A DNA stretch of 63,529 bases, filler included, from Thraustochytrium aureum (taxonomy: Eukaryota): NCBI GenBank assembly GCA_012862495.1. It is 5 parts of 4 records of this genome, joined end to end, with 100 filler letters (N's around TTAATTAATTAA, not from the genome) between each part and the next. Parts side by side here need not be neighbours in the genome. Positions count along the whole stretch, not along the records: positions 21,405 to 45,074 come from BLSG01000269.1; 4 more parts are not named here. One strand, 5' to 3'. Below the pieces are notes generated by a model. That model saw only the letters and a program-made list of their open reading frames with translations. It was not told the origin of the DNA and searched no databases. The translations under genes and the position numbers were made by a program. This document shows positions 32,660 through 55,622 of the stretch, piece after piece (within the stretch, counting starts at the first letter, position 1; every line of letters begins with the position of its first letter).

Positions 32660-34561
32660 NNNNNNNNNNNNNNNNNNNNNNNNNNNNNNNNNNNNNNNNN
32701 NNNNNNNNNNNNNNNNNNNNNNNNNNNNNNNNNNNNNNNNNNNNNNNNNNNNNNNNNNNNNNNNNNNNNNNNNNNNNNNNNNNNNNNNNNNNNNNNNNNN
32801 NNNNNNNNNNNNNNNNNNNNNNNNNNNNNNNNNNNNNNNNNNNNNNNNNNNNNNNNNNNNNNNNNNNNNNNNNNNNNNNNNNNNNNNNNNNNNNNNNNNN
32901 NNNNNNNNNNNNNNNNNNNNNNNNNNNNNNNNNNNNNNNNNNNNNNNNNNNNNNNNNNNNNNNNNNNNNNNNNNNNNNNNNNNNNNNNNNNNNNNNNNNN
33001 NNNNNNNNNNNNNNNNNNNNNNNNNNNNNNNNNNNNNNNNNNNNNNNNNNNNNNNNNNNNNNNNNNNNNNNNNNNNNNNNNNNNNNNNNNNNNNNNNNNN
33101 NNNNNNNNNNNNNNNNNNNNNNNNNNNNNNNNNNNNNNNNNNNNNNNNNNNNNNNNNNNNNNNNNNNNNNNNNNNNNNNNNNNNNNNNNNNNNNNNNNNN
33201 NNNNNNNNNNNNNNNNNNNNNNNNNNNNNNNNNNNNNNNNNNNNNNNNNNNNNNNNNNNNNNNNNNNNNNNNNNNNNNNNNNNNNNNNNNNNNNNNNNNN
33301 NNNNNNNNNNNNNNNNNNNNNNNNNNNNNNNNNNNNNNNNNNNNNNNNNNNNNNNNNNNNNNNNNNNNNNNNNNNNNNNNNNNNNNNNNNNNNNNNNNNN
33401 NNNNNNNNNNNNNNNNNNNNNNNNNNNNNNNNNNNNNNNNNNNNNNNNNNNNNNNNNNNNNNNNNNNNNTCGCTGGCAGCCGCTCTTCCTGGCCTCCAAC
33501 GGACACTACGCAAGTATTCCACACCGGCCAACAATTCACGAGCGAGCATCACGCCCGGCTTGGGGCCGCGCCAGCCATGCACGAGCGTAACGAGCAGCGC
33601 GGCCATCACGTGCGTTCGCTCACGCGGCGGACGGACCACCAGCCTCCGAGAAGCGAGAGGGCGCGGAGGCTATAAAATGATGACAGAAGGATGGGTCAAT
33701 CGAAGGCGCGACAATCACTGACAGAGCCGTCGCGGCTTCACAGCCGGTACATGGCACGCCAACTGTGCAAAGCCGGATGGCTTGAGCTGGTCAGCGATGT
33801 GGAATTGCGCCAAGAGGAGGCGTGCCAGGTTGTTGGCGGACCCGGCGCACGCGGGCGCAGTACAGCTCCGAACGGAGAAGCAACGCTCGAGGCACTGACG
33901 CGAAGAGATGCGTTGGGAAAGATCCGTTTCTCTGAGCGAGCATGGGTAGATGCAAGGCGACTCAGTGCTGGGCAACTTACTGCCGAACACCTCGAGAGAT
34001 TGGTCTTTTGCCTGCATGAACTTGCGGTTGCTGCACCAGCCCCTATCTCTCCCCAAAGACGAGTTTGCCTCTCACAGCGCTGCAGCGCTGCAGCGCTGCC
34101 TTTGCGATTCATTTTCCTTCTCAACTTGTTGCTACTACGCTACAAGTTGCCGAACTGCTGCTATTCTTGCTGCTACAAGTTGCCAAACTGCTATTCTTGC
34201 TGCAGCGCGGCATACCCAGCCTCTAACTCCTGCGAAAATGCTCTTGCTTCCTGCGAAACAGTTTTCCATTGACTAGGTCGAGCGCTCTATGTTGATGCAA
34301 GTTGATGCCCAACTGTGCGAGCGCCTTTATCTGCTGAAGAGTCGCCTACCTGTTCCGCGCCAGCCTTCATGCTCAACGGAAGGGCAACGCGGCTCACTAC
34401 GGAGTTCCTGGATGCCAAAACAGCAGTTCCGAAACCTGAACAACGGAGGCATACCTTTAGCGAGCGCCTTGCACAGCAGCGCGCGACGCAGCTTCTCCAG
34501 GATTTGACTGGCTGACCAAACTCAGGCACGGGCGAACCTGATCTCGGCCTTGTCTGCAAAC

Positions 34562-36250
34562 ATGTCCAACCCATTGCATGTTGATCAGACCGTGTACACC
34601 TCGTTCCTGTTCGTGGCCATCTTGAGCACCCTTCTGACGGCGTTCTACTTTGTGCAATGGCGCCAAGGACGATGCAACACTCACCCTTTGTACGTGCAAG
34701 CCGTCACGGCGGTGGTCTACAGCATGAGCGCTGCCGGATACGGAGGCTTTGTCTTCAGTAGCATCAAGTTTGACGACGGCTCGTTCGTGGCGGTTCCCAT
34801 CGCGCGGTACCTCTTCTGGGTGATGACTTGCCCGGTGATTCTCGCAGGCTTCATCTCCCTCTTGCACTACCGCGACCCAACCAAGCAGGACATTAATCGC
34901 ACAGTGTTCATTGTGGTCAAGGATTTGGTTGTCATGTGCTTTGGCGTGCTCGCTGCCATTCAAGCGCCAGGGCTCATGAAAATCTCGCTTCTCGTTGTCT
35001 CGTTTTCCGTCAGCTTTTGGCTCCTTACAGACATGTTTCTGATTGTCCGCGAGCGCTCGGCGGACTTTGACGGACGACTTTGGACGTGGCTCTCGATGGT
35101 CTGCGCGCTGTTCTTGACCAGTTGGCTCATCTTCCCGTTGCTCTACGTGCTTGGGCCGCCCGGGTACGACGCGATCACTCGCGAGGGCGACGCAATCGGG
35201 CACGCCATCGGCGACCTCATTGCCAAGGACGTTTTCGGCTTTATCGTGTGGTACTTTCGCTTCAACGTTGTGATTCCGCACAAGAAGGAGCTAGACCGAC
35301 AGGAGGCCAAGGACGCAGCGGAGGAAGTGAGCGAGTTTGGTCTGCTCATCAGCAACAAGCAAACGCTGGACGCCAAGGACAACGGACCAATGAAGGTGCT
35401 CGAGTACCACGGCACGGTTCTCGTCATTGAGCCCGAGCCGCACATCCAGCGACTCCTAATGTATGTTCTTGAGGAGGCCCGGCTTCGTCCCGTCTGTGTT
35501 TTTGACTTTCAGCAGGCTAGGGCTGTGCTGCGCCGCGGCCGCATGGACGAGTACAGCGCTGTGTTCCTCAACTTGGACTATGCGGTGAGCCACTTTGCAG
35601 ATGCTCGCGGAGCGATGAGCACGTTCAACAACGCGCCAGTCTCGACTCCGATTCTCGGGTTCAAGCTCGGCGCCACAGCAAACCCGCTAGTGGAGCGAGA
35701 ACTCGCTGATCCGCAGCTCTGCAACGCCGTTCACGAGTACACGATGGATGCGCGCAGCACCGTTGCTCTCGTCAAGTTCTGGGAGCAAACCGCCGCCACC
35801 TGGCGGAAGCGCGCAAGAGCACTTGACGAAGAAGCTGCTCTGCACAGCATGCCGTTCAACCCCGTCTCCGTCGGCAACTCGTACGGCCTCAACCGTTCGC
35901 CGCTTCGGGTTCGCAATTCGTTCTCGCTAGCCCCCAGCAACCAGCAAAGTCCTTCTACGCCGCAGCTCGCAATCGACACCGGAATTTCGCCGGCCGGCAC
36001 ACCGCAGCCGACCAGTGCAAGGTCGTCTGTTTCAAAGCCCAACTTCACCACGAGCCCCGTCGGCGATGTTCCAGACACGGTTTGCCTTTGTAACGCAGCA
36101 GGTTGCTCTCGCACAGCGACGATGCAGTGCGGCGCCTGCAAACTCGACCCCGCCATGTACTGCTCGCGAGAGTGTCAGCTTGCGGCGTGGAGTTCGCACA
36201 AGGGCAGCTGCGGCGGCACAACGCCCAGCGCGGCACTTGCTCTTGTCTGA
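34562..36250 (+). CDS. Channelrhodopsin-like protein A (probable anion channelrhodopsin) fused to a pseudo-receiver domain and a MYND zinc finger
   Basis: 7 TM; TM3 ARYLFWVMTCPVIL, TM4 KDLVVMCFG, TM6 SWLIFPLLYVLGP, TM7 GHAIGDLIAKDVFG (retinal Lys codon 35225-35227); receiver-like VLVIEPEPHIQRLLMYVL...AVFLNL...PILGF; C-terminal CNAAGC..QCGAC..YCSRECQLAAWSSHKGSC. First ATG is at 34562. Confidence 0.92.
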   Translation: MSNPLHVDQTVYTSFLFVAILSTLLTAFYFVQWRQGRCNTHPLYVQAVTAVVYSMSAAGYGGFVFSSIKFDDGSFVAVPIARYLFWVMTCPVILAGFISLLHYRDPTKQDINRTVFIVVKDLVVMCFGVLAAIQAPGLMKISLLVVSFSVSFWLLTDMFLIVRERSADFDGRLWTWLSMVCALFLTSWLIFPLLYVLGPPGYDAITREGDAIGHAIGDLIAKDVFGFIVWYFRFNVVIPHKKELDRQEAKDAAEEVSEFGLLISNKQTLDAKDNGPMKVLEYHGTVLVIEPEPHIQRLLMYVLEEARLRPVCVFDFQQARAVLRRGRMDEYSAVFLNLDYAVSHFADARGAMSTFNNAPVSTPILGFKLGATANPLVERELADPQLCNAVHEYTMDARSTVALVKFWEQTAATWRKRARALDEEAALHSMPFNPVSVGNSYGLNRSPLRVRNSFSLAPSNQQSPSTPQLAIDTGISPAGTPQPTSARSSVSKPNFTTSPVGDVPDTVCLCNAAGCSRTATMQCGACKLDPAMYCSRECQLAAWSSHKGSCGGTTPSAALALV

Positions 36251-37278
36251 GCCAATCAATACGTGAACTTGCTTCCAAACAACCTCAGCTTTTCCGTTTT
36301 GTCTTCGTGTGGGACGCTACTACTAAGTAGGCACTCTACGCCTCGCTCGAGCGCGCTGGGAGGTGTCGCTCGGGCTCGGCCGTCGTTCGTGTGTTGTTGA
36401 TTGTTGGTAGCAAATGAGCTCGAGCTCGAACACGGCCAGGTCCGTCGCAACGCATTGTTTGATTTCCTCGACTGCGCCCCCAGCCAGCGCATCTCGACTT
36501 GGACTTCACGAGCACCAAGACTTCCAAGGACCACGCACTCGCCGCATCGCTTCGAGCGGCCAACCCCCGCGTCAACCGCAGAGCCCTGCCGGCGGACACA
36601 AGTTGTGGTTTTGGGAGTTCTCCCAGAATCGACGTGCAAGAGCGCAGCAAGCGGCACGTTGGGAGGCCGAATCTGATCATGATGGCCAGCAGTGGCTGCA
36701 TTACATCCTCATCCGGGGATGACTCTCTTCGCCAGATCACGTGCGGCACTCAACGGCCTTGGCACTGCCGGCCGTGACTGTCCCTGAGTCAGTCGCAGAG
36801 TTGTCGTTCATCATGTGATACCTTCTCCACTTCTGCCTCACCAGCTTTCATGCCGACGACGTGACGCGAGGCACGTGCAGGGGGGGCAATTCGGCGACGC
36901 GCAGGCGGTGGGAGCTCTCACGGCGACGTCAGCGCGGCGTCAGCGACTCGAGACATGGTGCCGGTCGCTGGCAATCGTAGTCATACGCAAACTGGCTGGC
37001 GGACACGCGGTGCGAAGGGGGAGGGGGAGTTTTCCGTCGTTTTCCATCATCAAAACCAACGTGCACGGTGGCTGCATCTGGGACTCGGAGACACGCGTTT
37101 GCGATTTTGCGGTTCGCAGTCTGGCGAGGGGCGCACGCCGGAATTCATCAGCTTCGGTGCTTGCAGTCCTCCCCGCAGGTCAGTGCAACCTTTCAGAGGC
37201 AACGTGCCGTGGAGTGCAGTCACCAAACACGCAGCGACGGCGAAGCTCATCAAGAATCATCAGCACTCTACGAAGAAG

Positions 37279-38472
37279 ATGGGGATCCGAATCGCGGCAG
37301 CGGCGTTGGCCGCCGCGGCAGCCGCCGCAACACCAAGCTTTGCTGCTGGCAGCTTCCATTCGACAATGACCGTCACGGCCACAGCTTTCGAGGACCTCGA
37401 ATTCGACAAACGGTTCGAGTTCGGCGACCTTGTCGTCGATCCTCCGGGCCTCCTTGAGCGGTTCATCTTCGCGGCCGGATCGGCGTGCGAGATCCGGTAC
37501 ACCGCGCTTCCATGGGTGGTAAACTGCGAGGTCGATGTCGCGATCGCCATGGACAACTCTACGTTCAACAACGGCGAGCCAGTCGTGTTCCAGGCCTTTG
37601 TCGGCGCCGTGTTCTCGCAGAGCGTCGTTAATGGTGACACGGACAGCAACTTGGAGATTCGCTACGGTGTGACAACGCCGAAGATCGACCTCAACCTGAA
37701 ATGGGCCGAGGCGTTCGGGCTTGACCTGAACGTGCCCTCCTACACGTTTCCGCCCGACGCGGACCAGATTGGCCTGCAGGTGCCGCTCGGGCTGGTCTCC
37801 AATGGCGTCTGCTTGGCAGAGAACCTCCCAGAACTCGCGAGTTTGCTCATCGCCGTCAACCCCCAGCTCCGCGTCGCAGCAGAGGCCATCGACAAGATCT
37901 CCGACATCACCGGGACCGACATTTGCGCCAAGTTGGCTGAACTCGTGATTGCCGAGGACGGCACTCCAGGCGTGGCGCTGAAGATGGTCGTGTCGCTTCA
38001 CTTCCTGGATGAGGCGCTGATGGATGAGCTCAACCCAGCGGCGCGCGCGCTGGTTGTTCAGCTCCGCAACGCCTTGCTCAAACGCGACTCAGGGATTGTC
38101 TTGTCAGCTGACTTGGGCAAGCTCATCTTTGACAGACTCTCTGGGAAGTCAGAGCTGGCCGGCACGACAGCGGACACTTTGGATGGCGTCCTCGACAAGA
38201 ACGGTACATTCCTCTTCGGCTCGTTCACGCAGCTTGCCTCGGACGACAAGTTGACTCCTGGGTCGCCAGAGTCGCCCGAGGCCACCGAGGGGGAGCTCTC
38301 CCTTGTCGGACCGCTTGTGGGGACCGGCGTGGTTTTGGCGCTTGCGGCTCTGGCAAGTGTGGCGTTTGTGCGCGCTCGGCGCGCCAAGCAGCAGAACGAA
38401 TCAGTCGACCCCATGCAAGACCCCGTGGCCCACCGGGTTCAAGTTGCCAACCCGCGCTGGGGCACGGTTTGA
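37279..38472 (+). CDS. Uncharacterised type I single-pass membrane protein
   Basis: Signal peptide MGIRIAAAALAAAAAAATPSFA, about 330-aa ectodomain with 4 Cys, TM LVGPLVGTGVVLALAALASVAFV followed by RARRAK, short tail. Confidence 0.75.
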   Translation: MGIRIAAAALAAAAAAATPSFAAGSFHSTMTVTATAFEDLEFDKRFEFGDLVVDPPGLLERFIFAAGSACEIRYTALPWVVNCEVDVAIAMDNSTFNNGEPVVFQAFVGAVFSQSVVNGDTDSNLEIRYGVTTPKIDLNLKWAEAFGLDLNVPSYTFPPDADQIGLQVPLGLVSNGVCLAENLPELASLLIAVNPQLRVAAEAIDKISDITGTDICAKLAELVIAEDGTPGVALKMVVSLHFLDEALMDELNPAARALVVQLRNALLKRDSGIVLSADLGKLIFDRLSGKSELAGTTADTLDGVLDKNGTFLFGSFTQLASDDKLTPGSPESPEATEGELSLVGPLVGTGVVLALAALASVAFVRARRAKQQNESVDPMQDPVAHRVQVANPRWGTV

Positions 38473-38870
38473 GAATTAGATTGAGACCAAGANNNNNNNN
38501 NNNNNNNNNNNNNNNNNNNNNNNNNNNNNNNNNNNNNNNNNNNNNNNNNNNNNNNNNNNNNNNNNNNNNNNNNNNNNNNNNNNNNNNNNNNNNNNNNNNN
38601 NNNNNNNNNNNNNNNNNNNNNNNNNNNNNNNNNNNNNNNNNNNNNNNNNNNNNNNNNNNNNNNNNNNNNNNNNNNNNNNNNNNNNNNNNNNNNNNNNNNN
38701 NNNNNNNNNNNNNNNNNAAAGCGTCAAAATTGGATCGATCCCGTAAATCTGCGTTTACCTACCCCTGGTCTAGGATGGGTGCGTGGCACCTTGCGGCAAC
38801 CCGCGCGAGCCTTTCGGTCCCTTGCGATTTCTGCTGTGCTCTACCTGCGCTTTTAAACTCTAAGAATTGG

Positions 38871-40724
38871 TCAGGCCCCGTTGCGCAGCGTGGCACACTC
38901 TCGCTTGTGGGTTTCGCGCCAGTCCCTGACCTGGCAGTCACGGCCGCAGTACGCGCGTTGGTGGCACGCGCCGCACTGCATCTGGGCTCGGCTAAAGCAC
39001 CCACTTGCGCTGCACGTCTCCATTGGCAAGCTTGTTCCGGGCACTGTCAGTCTGGCATCAAAGGCGTTGTTCGCTCTCGGTGGCGACGCGGGCTGCTGCT
39101 CGGGCGTTAAACTACCACCACTTTGCTGCTGCAGCAGCTGCTGCTGCTGGCGCTCATTGAATTTTGTGTAGTCTGGGTTGCGTGGTGACTGCGACGGGTC
39201 GTACCAACGGCGGAAAGGGTCGTCAGTGTCGATAAGCGCTGCGTGCGAGGCGTGTCGGTCTAGCATGCCACTGCCTTGTGGCACCTCAAGGCTCGGCGGC
39301 TCGGTTGAGAACTGGGACGAGCCGGACTGGACCCTGTGAAGAGAGTTGGGTTGAAATATCACCCCACGCAGGTCTTGGTCCAGAGGTGCGGACTGTGAGT
39401 TGAACGACATTCTTCGGGCCTGCGACATCGCCGCTTCGCCGCCATTTCCAATCATGAGCTGCTCCTCCTCCTCGGAGGTCATCGCAGCGCGGCGCCAAAT
39501 GTCGCTTGTCTTGCGCCAATGGCGCACGAGGCGGCTAATGTACCGTTCATCGAGCAAGTGCATCATGGTTGCGTGGCACAGGTGGCGGTCCTCTGTTTCT
39601 TGCTCCATTAGCTTTTCGTCGTCCGTGCCGTTGGTGTAGCCGAGGATGGGGAAATGGTACGGGCGCTTTGAAAACACCTTCTTGAACTGGGAGGCCCCTT
39701 GACGGTTGTCAAACTGGTGGTGGAGGTTGACGAGGACAGCATCGAACTCGTCGAGGCGGCTTCGCAAGATGATCTGCTTTGCTTGGTCCAGGCTAAAAGC
39801 GAGGACAGTGTTGAGCCCAACCTCGCCGAGCATGTACATGAACAGGCGTTGGTATCCCACGTCGGGCTCCACAATGAGCACCGAGCCGACTACCTTGTTC
39901 TTGGACGGCTTGGAGCGACCTGCAGCCGGGTCTGGGCCGTTGTACTGGAGCTTTTTGGACTTGGCGACGCTGCCTGGCATGGGGACAATCGCGGCCTTGG
40001 CCTCCTCGCCTTCAATGAACGGGTAGATGATTCCGTAGCGCAAGTACCAGCACGCAAACCCAAACATGTTCTTGGCAAGCAGGTCGCCGATAGCGTGCCC
40101 GATGGCTTCACCCTCCGTGCTGATGATATCAAGTACGGGAGGGCCCAAGAAGTACAGGATTGGGAAGATGAACCAACTCGCAAAGAAGAGACAAGTAACT
40201 CCGACGAGCACGTGCCAAAGGTGACCTGGGTAAGAGTCCTTGCGCATCAGCTCCAAATGCACCGTCTCGTAGACGAGGGACAGGCTCACGCACAGGGCAA
40301 TCGACAGAAAAACACCCTTCCAAACCGGCGAGGACTGGAACGACGCAACAACACCAGCAGCCATGAGGACGAGGTCCCGAGTCACGATGAAGTTGATCTT
40401 GGTGAAAGAGATACGCGGCCCGAGCAAACCTATGGTCTGGAAGAAGCCCATGAGCATCGTCGGGCAGGTAATCATCCACGACATGTAGCGGCCGATGGCG
40501 ACAGGGCGGGCGCCGTCAGGGAAGACAATTGTTGCAAAGATGAATTCGCCTGCTCCGAAGGCAGTGAGCGTGTACACGATTGCGGTCACGCCTTGCACGT
40601 ACAACGGGTAGAGCAGGCAGCGACCTCGGCGGTACATGACCGCGTAGAAGCAGAAGAGCGAGCATGACGTGATTACGACGAGAAGGCTAGCCGCGAACGC
40701 GCCAGCGCCCTGCTCGAGCCCCAT
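38871..40724 (-). CDS. Channelrhodopsin-like protein B (probable anion channelrhodopsin) fused to a pseudo-receiver domain and a MYND zinc finger
   Basis: TM3 GRYMSWMITCPTML, TM4 RDLVLMAAG, TM6 SWFIFPILYFLGP, TM7 GHAIGDLLAKNMFG (Lys codon 40073-40071); VLIVEPDVGYQRLFMYML...FDAVLVNL...PILGYT; CSASGC..QCGAC..YCGRDCQVRDWRETHKREC. Confidence 0.92.
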   Translation of the reverse strand: MGLEQGAGAFAASLLVVITSCSLFCFYAVMYRRGRCLLYPLYVQGVTAIVYTLTAFGAGEFIFATIVFPDGARPVAIGRYMSWMITCPTMLMGFFQTIGLLGPRISFTKINFIVTRDLVLMAAGVVASFQSSPVWKGVFLSIALCVSLSLVYETVHLELMRKDSYPGHLWHVLVGVTCLFFASWFIFPILYFLGPPVLDIISTEGEAIGHAIGDLLAKNMFGFACWYLRYGIIYPFIEGEEAKAAIVPMPGSVAKSKKLQYNGPDPAAGRSKPSKNKVVGSVLIVEPDVGYQRLFMYMLGEVGLNTVLAFSLDQAKQIILRSRLDEFDAVLVNLHHQFDNRQGASQFKKVFSKRPYHFPILGYTNGTDDEKLMEQETEDRHLCHATMMHLLDERYISRLVRHWRKTSDIWRRAAMTSEEEEQLMIGNGGEAAMSQARRMSFNSQSAPLDQDLRGVIFQPNSLHRVQSGSSQFSTEPPSLEVPQGSGMLDRHASHAALIDTDDPFRRWYDPSQSPRNPDYTKFNERQQQQLLQQQSGGSLTPEQQPASPPRANNAFDARLTVPGTSLPMETCSASGCFSRAQMQCGACHQRAYCGRDCQVRDWRETHKRECATLRNGA

Positions 40725-54551: not shown

Positions 54552-55622
54552 ATGGACGGGAGCATGTCGTTTGAGGAGTTTGCAGCTGTGCGCAGGCGCA
54601 GGAAGCAGCAGGAGGAGAATGTGGCCAAGGAGGATGGTCGCAAAGAACGCGTGGTTGGCGCAGAGGCGGGGCGGGAAGCGGAGGACGAAGGCGAGTCGGG
54701 CGTGCTCGCGAGGCTAGGGGGCGCTCTGCAGACCCAGGAGCTGCAGTTGGTGCTGGTGGTCCTGATCGTGGTCGACTTTTTGAGCGGGTTTTACCAGCTG
54801 TACGCGCAGGCGCGCGGCTGGCAGAGCCCAATGCTGAGCATTTTGGAGTACCAGTCGGGGCTGTGCTTGCTGCTGTTTTCGCTCGAGCTCGGGCTCGTGT
54901 TGCTCGCGTTTCGCAGCGAGACGCTGTCTCACTTTGGGTACTCGCTGGACATTGCCGTCGTTGGCGCCATGTACTATGGCATCCTGGCGTCGCCAGGCCC
55001 AGGGTCGGCGCTCGTGCCGGGCACGCGCATCCTGAACGTGTTCCGGCTGTGGCGGGTCGTGCGCATGATCAACGGTGCCATCGCAGCAAGCGAGCAGGCC
55101 CACGCGGCCACTAAGACCGAGCTAGCGGATCTGCAGGACAAGGTGGAGGGGTTCAAGCTGCGCGCTCGCAAAGCCGAGCAAGCTGCGAAGCGGGAAACGG
55201 ACAAGTACCGGCGGCTGGAGCAGTCTTTCCGTGCGCAGCGCGACGAGCTGGACACGATGCGAGAGGCCTTGCAGATCGCCGCGCAGACGATGGCCAAGGT
55301 CCAGGGCCTCGAGTCGATCGCGGGCTTGATGGGTGCGGAGGAGCAGCTCGAGCTCGAGCGTGTCGTTGAGGAGGAGCGCAGCACGAGCCGGCGCAAGGCC
55401 GGGGCGTCCAGCACTGGTCTTGAGGCTGTGGGGGGCAAGGAGGCTGGCGAAGAGGATGACGACGACTTTGTGGATTACCCAGACGTGGCGGACGACGACA
55501 ACTCGGAGGCAGACCCAACGAGAAATGGGGATGTGTCGCCTTTGCAGCGGCGCGGTCAGGCAGGGTCTAGTGAAGCCTGGGCCGCGCTCGCGTCCGCCGA
55601 GCCACAGGACACGAGTTCGTAA
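54552..55622 (+). CDS. HVCN1: Hv1-type voltage-gated proton channel (voltage-sensor domain + coiled coil)
   Basis: S1 VLVVLIVVDF (Asp), S2 LFSLEL, S3 LDIAVV, S4 FRLWRVVRMING (RxWRxxR..N), no pore domain, C-terminal coiled coil. Confidence 0.8.
   Translation: MDGSMSFEEFAAVRRRRKQQEENVAKEDGRKERVVGAEAGREAEDEGESGVLARLGGALQTQELQLVLVVLIVVDFLSGFYQLYAQARGWQSPMLSILEYQSGLCLLLFSLELGLVLLAFRSETLSHFGYSLDIAVVGAMYYGILASPGPGSALVPGTRILNVFRLWRVVRMINGAIAASEQAHAATKTELADLQDKVEGFKLRARKAEQAAKRETDKYRRLEQSFRAQRDELDTMREALQIAAQTMAKVQGLESIAGLMGAEEQLELERVVEEERSTSRRKAGASSTGLEAVGGKEAGEEDDDDFVDYPDVADDDNSEADPTRNGDVSPLQRRGQAGSSEAWAALASAEPQDTSS

Follow-up and report, generated by a model that had tools for sequence, protein, structure and literature searches.

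Rhodopsin A of Thraustochytrium aureum has phenylalanine at the site of the primary counterion of bacteriorhodopsin, which raises the question of whether the protein is a red-shifted anion channelrhodopsin. A sequence-only reading of the locus had proposed this, together with a possible use as a new inhibitory optogenetic tool. Rhodopsin A is a labyrinthulean channelrhodopsin homolog without three of the four RubyACR residues, and we consider it probable, from comparison with tested relatives, that it is a green-absorbing, light-gated chloride channel. The remaining interest lies in Asp223 and in a MYND finger, not in Phe85. The gene is located in the window, the whole 63,529-nucleotide stretch of DNA that was analysed, which also holds a paralog:

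34562 to 36250, + strand: rhodopsin A gene, a single open reading frame of 562 amino acids (protein P0001).
34598 to 35266, + strand: seven-helix type-1 rhodopsin domain, residues 13-235 (Pfam PF01036, Bac_rhodopsin, E 1.2e-22).
38871 to 40724, - strand: rhodopsin B, a paralog of 617 amino acids (P0002), matching 'T ACR1' (row 333) by eye and also carrying a MYND finger.

At this E value the Pfam match is not due to chance. Channelrhodopsins are the top matches of P0001 both by sequence (HMMER) and by fold. The full-length model, built from three sequences, has a pLDDT of 48 and informs the fold class only. Residues 1-300 of the protein are, in a by-eye comparison, the 300 listed residues of 'T ACR2' of Thraustochytrium aureum ATCC 34304, Asp223 included. 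This entry is row 334 of Data Set S1, marked 'Tested N' and credited to Govorunova et al. 2020; a third paralog of the species is listed there as 'T ACR3' (PMC8406140). By this sequence match, rhodopsin A is already catalogued as 'T ACR2' and is not new. The row stops at 300 residues and does not extend to the end of the receiver or to the MYND finger of P0001. The exact full-length proteins of rhodopsins A and B are absent from a collection of 15 billion sequences, and the titles and abstract openings of the literature on Thraustochytrium aureum rhodopsin contained nothing on rhodopsin A. A word-index homolog search returned P0003 as the sole match for P0001 or for a three-row alignment, and none for the domain alone; P0003 is, by eye, the listed SaACR2 row (MT002463) save two residues. 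Just 5' of the start codon, positions 34494-34581 occur in two versions each in runs X2 and X3 (5 and 1 differences), which from sequence may be either alleles or alternative 5' ends.

The residues on which the family assignment depends are the following:

34706 to 34708, + strand: Thr49 (ACG), aligned to the GtACR1 Glu68 / ChR2 Glu90 site.
34814 to 34816, + strand: Phe85 (TTC), at the primary counterion site (bacteriorhodopsin Asp85); common to RubyACRs, green AlACR2 and SaACR2.
35213 to 35215, + strand: Asp218, aligned as the second photoactive-site carboxylate (bacteriorhodopsin Asp212 site).
35225 to 35227, + strand: Lys222, aligned as the retinal Schiff-base lysine.

Positions 34802-34846 translate to ARYLFWVMTCPVILA. 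We take the residue roles in C1C2, including that of the glutamate of 'RYAEW' as the Asp85-site counterion, to be established. In the HMMER alignment with C1C2 (3ug9), Phe85 stands opposite this glutamate and Thr49 opposite the mid-TM2 glutamate. Searching 1.84 billion representatives with HMMER yielded 203 matches, of which the 150 listed, together with the two window proteins, form a 152-row alignment. Its Phe85 column is occupied by aspartate in pump-like rhodopsins and by glutamate in chlorophyte-type channels, and HfACR1 (P0008) has phenylalanine and threonine in the columns of Phe85 and Thr49. The placement of phenylalanine (codon 34814-34816) at the Asp85 site, made earlier by comparison with bacteriorhodopsin, is thus confirmed by translation and by both alignments, and the threonine described at the Glu68 site of TM2 is indeed aligned to the mid-TM2 glutamate. 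Contigs of runs X1 and X2 cover the Phe85 codon with zero differences. The initial statement that RubyACRs have phenylalanine at the Asp85 site and no TM2 glutamate was also correct: AlACR1 has Phe108 at the position of Asp85 and Thr72 at that of Glu68 (10.1101/2020.04.15.043158).

Within the labyrinthulean family, however, neither Phe85 nor Thr49 is distinctive by sequence. Threonine occupies the Thr49 site in 16 of 17 labyrinthulean-clade tree rows and in 17 of 17 in the full-length alignment, and TM2 of P0001 (residues 38-62) contains zero aspartates or glutamates. Since TM2 glutamates are absent from all labyrinthulean homologs (10.1101/2020.04.15.043158), Thr49 says nothing about colour.

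By sequence, rhodopsin A is a homolog of labyrinthulean anion channelrhodopsins, and this part of the initial interpretation stood. It has the family traits of a Schiff-base lysine (Lys222), Asp218, the non-carboxylate Phe85, a TM2 without glutamates, and an Asp-less receiver-like domain. A 17-row maximum-likelihood tree was calculated from the rhodopsin domains, with rows shorter than 190 residues (P0015 and P0019) left out of the trees. P0001 pairs with SaACR2 (100/99), and SaACR3 is the partner of rhodopsin B (99/98). HfACR1 lies in a separate clade (99/100) together with P0011, which is by eye the S2ACR2 row and one residue from AlACR2, and is used here as the AlACR2-type protein. P0001 falls in a 13-row clade (98/96) with SaACR2, SaACR3, HfACR1 and P0011, and a 34-row quick tree agrees. 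In the rhodopsin domain, P0001 is identical to SaACR2 at 133 of 223 positions, to HfACR1 at 90 and to P0011 at 83. RubyACRs are 76-80% identical to AlACR1 (10.1101/2020.04.15.043158), a level of kinship that P0001, with 90/223 to HfACR1, does not reach. A tree constrained to join P0001 to HfACR1 and no other row fails the test (p-AU 1e-38), which is a strict one because it also separates P0001 from SaACR2. The pocket alignment and the tree place rhodopsin A beside SaACR2 and not beside HfACR1, the RubyACR row used. P0006 (CAK9108303.1), labelled as from the dinoflagellate Durusdinium trenchii, also falls within the labyrinthulean clade as a neighbour of the AlACR2-type protein (93/94); it likely comes from a thraustochytrid contig in the Durusdinium trenchii assembly. 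Two further proteins of the clade, P0009 and P0010, have asparagine at the Asp85 site, a residue absent there from the 36 listed rows of Data Set S1.

The DC gate and the retinal pocket of rhodopsin A contain these residues:

34829 to 34831, + strand: Cys90, DC-gate cysteine, with its partner Asp121 at 34922-34924 (cf. AlACR1 Cys113/Asp144).
34931 to 34933, + strand: Val124, at the bacteriorhodopsin Met118 site (HfACR1 Met143); the red-tuning methionine is missing.
35003 to 35005, + strand: Phe148, at the RubyACR Tyr171 site; the Ruby residue is missing.
35123 to 35125, + strand: Trp188, at the RubyACR Gln213 site (bacteriorhodopsin Trp182); the Ruby residue is missing.
35135 to 35137, + strand: Pro192, at the RubyACR Ile217 site (bacteriorhodopsin Pro186); the Ruby residue is missing.

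Four pocket residues are constant in RubyACRs, namely Phe108, Tyr171, Gln213 and Ile217, and the DC-gate pair of AlACR1 is Cys113/Asp144 (10.1101/2020.04.15.043158). P0001 has one of the four marks, Phe85, and lacks the equivalents of the other three. Sites 85/148/188/192 read F/F/W/P in P0001, SaACR2 (P0003) and P0011, and F/Y/Q/I in HfACR1. Site 124, where Val124 is opposite Thr198 of C1C2, is occupied by valine in P0001, threonine in SaACR2 and leucine in P0011, each followed by Phe/Trp/Pro at the other three sites. Phenylalanine at site 85 occurs in at least 8 rows of the 152-row alignment (150 of the 203 matches listed), and among these rows only HfACR1 has methionine, tyrosine, glutamine and isoleucine at the other sites. 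In Data Set S1, by eye, 23 of the 36 labyrinthulean rows have phenylalanine there; the full Ruby set accompanies it in 9 and is missing in 14. The count covers named rows, excludes two unnamed metagenomic rows, and includes many almost identical sequences of closely related strains. In a comparison of 24 pocket and gate positions, P0001 agrees with SaACR2 at 21, with P0011 at 19 and with HfACR1 at 16.

RubyACRs (AlACR1, HfACR1, A1ACR1 and T1ACR1; 590-610 nm) share with P0001 the phenylalanine at the Asp85 site, the threonine at the Glu68 site, the Cys-Asp gate, the Asp212-site aspartate, alanine before the lysine, and a receiver-like tail. They differ from P0001, which has Phe, Trp, Pro and Val in place of Tyr171, Gln213, Ile217 and Met147 and is 40% identical to HfACR1. 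Rhodopsin A could still be a RubyACR-like anion channel peaking at 580-610 nm if the phenylalanine sufficed or other residues compensated. Phe85, Thr49, Ala221 and Tyr195 agree with HfACR1, and all but Thr49 are red-favouring features of that protein. The half-maximum of HfACR1 at 655 nm moves to 629 nm in F104S, a blue shift of 26 nm caused by loss of the phenylalanine, and GtACR1 S97F is red-shifted (PMC12448745, in excerpt). The same excerpt, however, reports 637 nm for M143V (18 nm blue), 644 nm for M143C and 646 nm for A242C, and P0001 lacks the methionine along with the three Ruby residues. In AlACR1, the shifts are 10 nm for Phe108, 20 nm for Tyr171 (Y171I) and 15 nm for Ile217-to-Pro, and are additive; replacement of Gln213 has almost no effect on colour (10.1101/2020.04.15.043158). 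The same paper describes F108W as an imitation of AlACR3, whose listed sequence carries valine at this site; this is probably a misprint, like 'Y217P'.

The relatives of rhodopsin A also speak against a red peak. Neither AlACR2 nor SaACR2, the two tested proteins among the 14 phenylalanine rows without the Ruby set, is red. Purified AlACR2 absorbs at 525 nm and its action spectrum has a shoulder near 545 nm, and the tested labyrinthulean homologs besides the four Ruby ones are green or blue (10.1101/2020.04.15.043158). NlCCR has phenylalanine at the counterion site and yet peaks at ~440 nm and conducts cations; its motifs are ACR-like, yet Na+ is conducted, and mutations at its tuning sites moved the colour in the 'wrong' direction (PMC12448745, in excerpt). 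Phenylalanine at the counterion site alone foretells neither colour nor selectivity. Together with the rejected grouping with HfACR1 alone, these observations make a peak at 580-610 nm most improbable. The inference of a red shift thus fails on the three missing Ruby residues, the missing methionine, and the presence of the same phenylalanine in green AlACR2 and in SaACR2. A new red-shifted silencer would have been a useful tool, but the pocket is of the green type and the sequence became publicly available in a list of 2020-2021, so that the claim adds little.

If the shifts of 20, 15 and 18 nm are taken off the RubyACR range of 590-610 nm, ~540-555 nm remains, an estimate that assumes additivity across two proteins and lets the Tyr-to-Ile shift stand in for Tyr-to-Phe. 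With AlACR2 as the anchor, we predict by analogy a peak of rhodopsin A at 510-550 nm.

The residue that follows the Schiff-base lysine sets rhodopsin A apart from its relatives:

35228 to 35230, + strand: Asp223 (GAC), at the central-gate asparagine site (GtACR1 N239, ChR2 N258, C1C2 N297, Chrimson E300).

Asp223 is aligned opposite the asparagine that follows the retinal lysine of C1C2. Among the 149 aligned rows of the matches listed that have the Schiff-base lysine, this position is occupied by asparagine in 119 and glutamine in 5, by aspartate in P0001 only, and by glutamate in one row, that of Chrimson. Asparagine follows the lysine in 35 of the 36 listed labyrinthulean rows (Data Set S1, by eye), and P0001 lacks the amide. 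An amide here is typical of channelrhodopsins but does not define them, for 'T ACR2' itself is counted as a member by those who described the family. Data Set S1 has 50 places where Lys-Asp follows Ala, Ser, Cys, Gly or Thr, and only in 'T ACR2' is the lysine that of the retinal. Asp223 met no mention in the portions of published text searched. One contig each from runs X1 and X3, which belong to two studies, covers the codon without a difference at a depth of ~4. A sequencing error was considered and judged unlikely, although these are contig data of low depth.

Most anion channelrhodopsins have one carboxylate in the central gate, Glu68 on TM2, which is neutral in the dark. Since the labyrinthulean family has lost this TM2 carboxylate, the most economical interpretation has Asp223 supplying one again, this time from TM7, and altering kinetics or amplitude. 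Chrimson (E300) and C1C2 N297D resemble P0001 in having a central-gate carboxylate directly after the Schiff-base lysine; unlike P0001, they are chlorophyte cation channels with a glutamate counterion, TM2 glutamates and distant sequences. As Chrimson absorbs at 590 nm and is the only other protein with an aligned carboxylate after the lysine among the matches listed, the resemblance might be taken in favour of a red peak of rhodopsin A. However, E300 of Chrimson governs closing, and it is changes at other residues that are described as causing large blue shifts (PMC5577340, in excerpt).

Asp223 might instead alter selectivity: the channel could let protons or cations through, perhaps Ca2+ among them, or be non-selective, and would then excite rather than inhibit. 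Asp223 is the sole aspartate in the 149 rows and its codon is present in runs of two studies, while the protein with the sole glutamate, Chrimson, is proton-selective. C1C2 N297D has a higher calcium affinity and a lower gate barrier (PMC11931529, in excerpt), and NlCCR conducts Na+ with a phenylalanine counterion and a glutamate-free TM2 (PMC12448745, in excerpt). On the other hand, most anion channelrhodopsins tolerate one gate carboxylate, so Asp223 may merely replace Glu68, and both E68Q and N239Q of GtACR1 keep anion selectivity (PMC11931529, in excerpt). Residues 38-62 of TM2 are free of aspartate and glutamate. The sister protein SaACR2 has asparagine at this site, which confines the change to a single lineage, with no sign of a clade that shares it. 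A selectivity switch driven by Asp223 is possible, although less likely than a restored gate carboxylate, and we give such an exciting channel only a slim chance. It is equally doubtful that the gate carboxylate has moved from helix 2 to helix 7, through Glu68 to Thr and Asn239 to Asp, with a proton-, cation- or Ca2+-permeable channel as the result. If true, the move would be a one-residue natural selectivity switch. The prediction of ion selectivity from sequence is described as a major unresolved problem (PMC12448745, in excerpt), and P0001 and SaACR2 make a close natural pair, alike at 21 of 24 pocket and gate positions and differing at Asp223. SaACR2 resembles P0001 in the TM3 motif, the F/F/W/P pocket, the receiver and the MYND finger; it differs in having Thr, Phe and Asn in place of Val124, Tyr195 and Asp223.

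The cytoplasmic tail of rhodopsin A contains two modules:

35405 to 35860, + strand: receiver (CheY-like) fold, residues 282-433 (model pLDDT 93.4; Foldseek receivers E 1.9e-5).
36089 to 36211, + strand: C-terminal MYND zinc finger, residues 510-550 (Pfam PF01753, E 6.6e-7, 29.7 bits, cut-off 22.7).

The model of residues 282-433 is composed of five strands and five helices, and its top Foldseek matches are response-regulator receivers. Asn337 closes strand 3 and, in the model, would occupy the position of the phospho-acceptor aspartate. Sequence search did not detect the receiver in rhodopsin A or B, the best Pfam Response_reg hit having E 0.18 and lying in B only. Asp-less receivers of labyrinthulean channelrhodopsins were described previously and are thought not to switch (10.1101/2020.04.15.042127, in excerpt). 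The MYND finger is present in 5 of 18 labyrinthulean-clade proteins scanned, in 4 of them above the Pfam cut-off, and some of the 18 may be incomplete. The carriers besides P0001 are P0002, P0003, P0007 and P0012; the Pfam scan found none in HfACR1 or P0011. The literature searched, at the level of listings, gave no description of a MYND finger on labyrinthulean channelrhodopsins. The finger hints at a binding partner of the cytoplasmic tail.

It is also conceivable that rhodopsin A is a green photoreceptor with little or no current, in which Asp223 blocks or impairs the anion path and any signalling passes through the receiver and the MYND finger. AlACR2, which has the same four-site pocket, gives a nearly pure charge-displacement signal with only residual chloride conductance, and the addition of a gate carboxylate in AlACR1 T72E reduces the current ~35-fold, from 2.7 nA to 76 pA (10.1101/2020.04.15.043158). 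GtACR1 N239A nearly loses its current (PMC6336409, in excerpt). By analogy, the residual conductance of AlACR2 weighs against reading rhodopsin A as a functional chloride channel. AlACR2 is like P0001 in the F/F/W/P pocket and the threonine at the Glu68 site, as seen through P0011; the AlACR2 type is unlike P0001 in its clade, in leucine at the Met118 site, in asparagine after the lysine, and in the lack of a MYND finger. Contigs differ at 11 coding positions of gene A, 8 of them synonymous, and the 4 differences in the rhodopsin domain are all synonymous, which suggests, if only weakly, that the protein has been preserved. Against a silent photoreceptor stands the sister SaACR2, one of seven tested labyrinthulean rows, which is catalogued as functional with anion selectivity 'not confirmed'; among the seven, that selectivity is confirmed only for AlACR1 and HfACR1 (PMC8406140). 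The receiver, without its phospho-acceptor aspartate, is likewise of the kind thought not to switch. We regard a photoreceptor of this type as unlikely.

For the green chloride channel that we favour, tested relatives suggest the following mechanism. Retinal on Lys222 would isomerise in light. With Phe85, the Asp85 site would offer nothing to accept a proton, and the Schiff base would therefore stay protonated during pore opening, with Asp218 as its counterion. Anions would then flow down their gradient past a TM2 without glutamates, and the closing rate would be set by Cys90-Asp121. Phe85 may give a modest red push, but the ordinary ring pocket of Val124, Phe148, Trp188 and Pro192 is expected to keep the peak green in spite of it. 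Asp223 probably takes the role of the TM2 central-gate carboxylate and may reduce the current. Docking rather than gating is the probable function of the Asp-less receiver and of the MYND finger. By analogy, rhodopsin A probably serves light sensing in zoospores. Zoospores of Aurantiochytrium limacinum have higher levels of AlACR1-3 than vegetative cells, a difference that is significant only in the case of AlACR1 (PMC12221091, in excerpt), and phototaxis has been reported for the zoospores of one labyrinthulomycete (PMC8818676, in excerpt).

Rhodopsins A and B are arranged tail to tail. Their stop codons are separated by 2,620 bases, and an N run at 38493-38717 lies within this interval. Rhodopsin B has serine at the Asp85 site (40479-40481), a Leu/Leu/Trp/Pro pocket and asparagine after the lysine. 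Between the two genes is an open reading frame of 505 amino acids (36955-38472, + strand) that has no Pfam match. By eye, its sequence is hydrophobic around residue 110 and ends in a membrane anchor, and its true start may therefore be later. At 54552-55622 (+ strand), a 356-residue protein has a weak Ion_trans match (E 2.6e-4, below the cut-off), an arginine-rich fourth helix and a coiled-coil tail; by its motif, it may be a voltage-gated proton channel. The whole window contains 8,906 N in 28 runs, and its other genes are ordinary eukaryotic ones by Pfam, encoding lysyl-tRNA synthetase-type, RPAP1, sugar transporter, CoA-transferase III and nucleoporin proteins.
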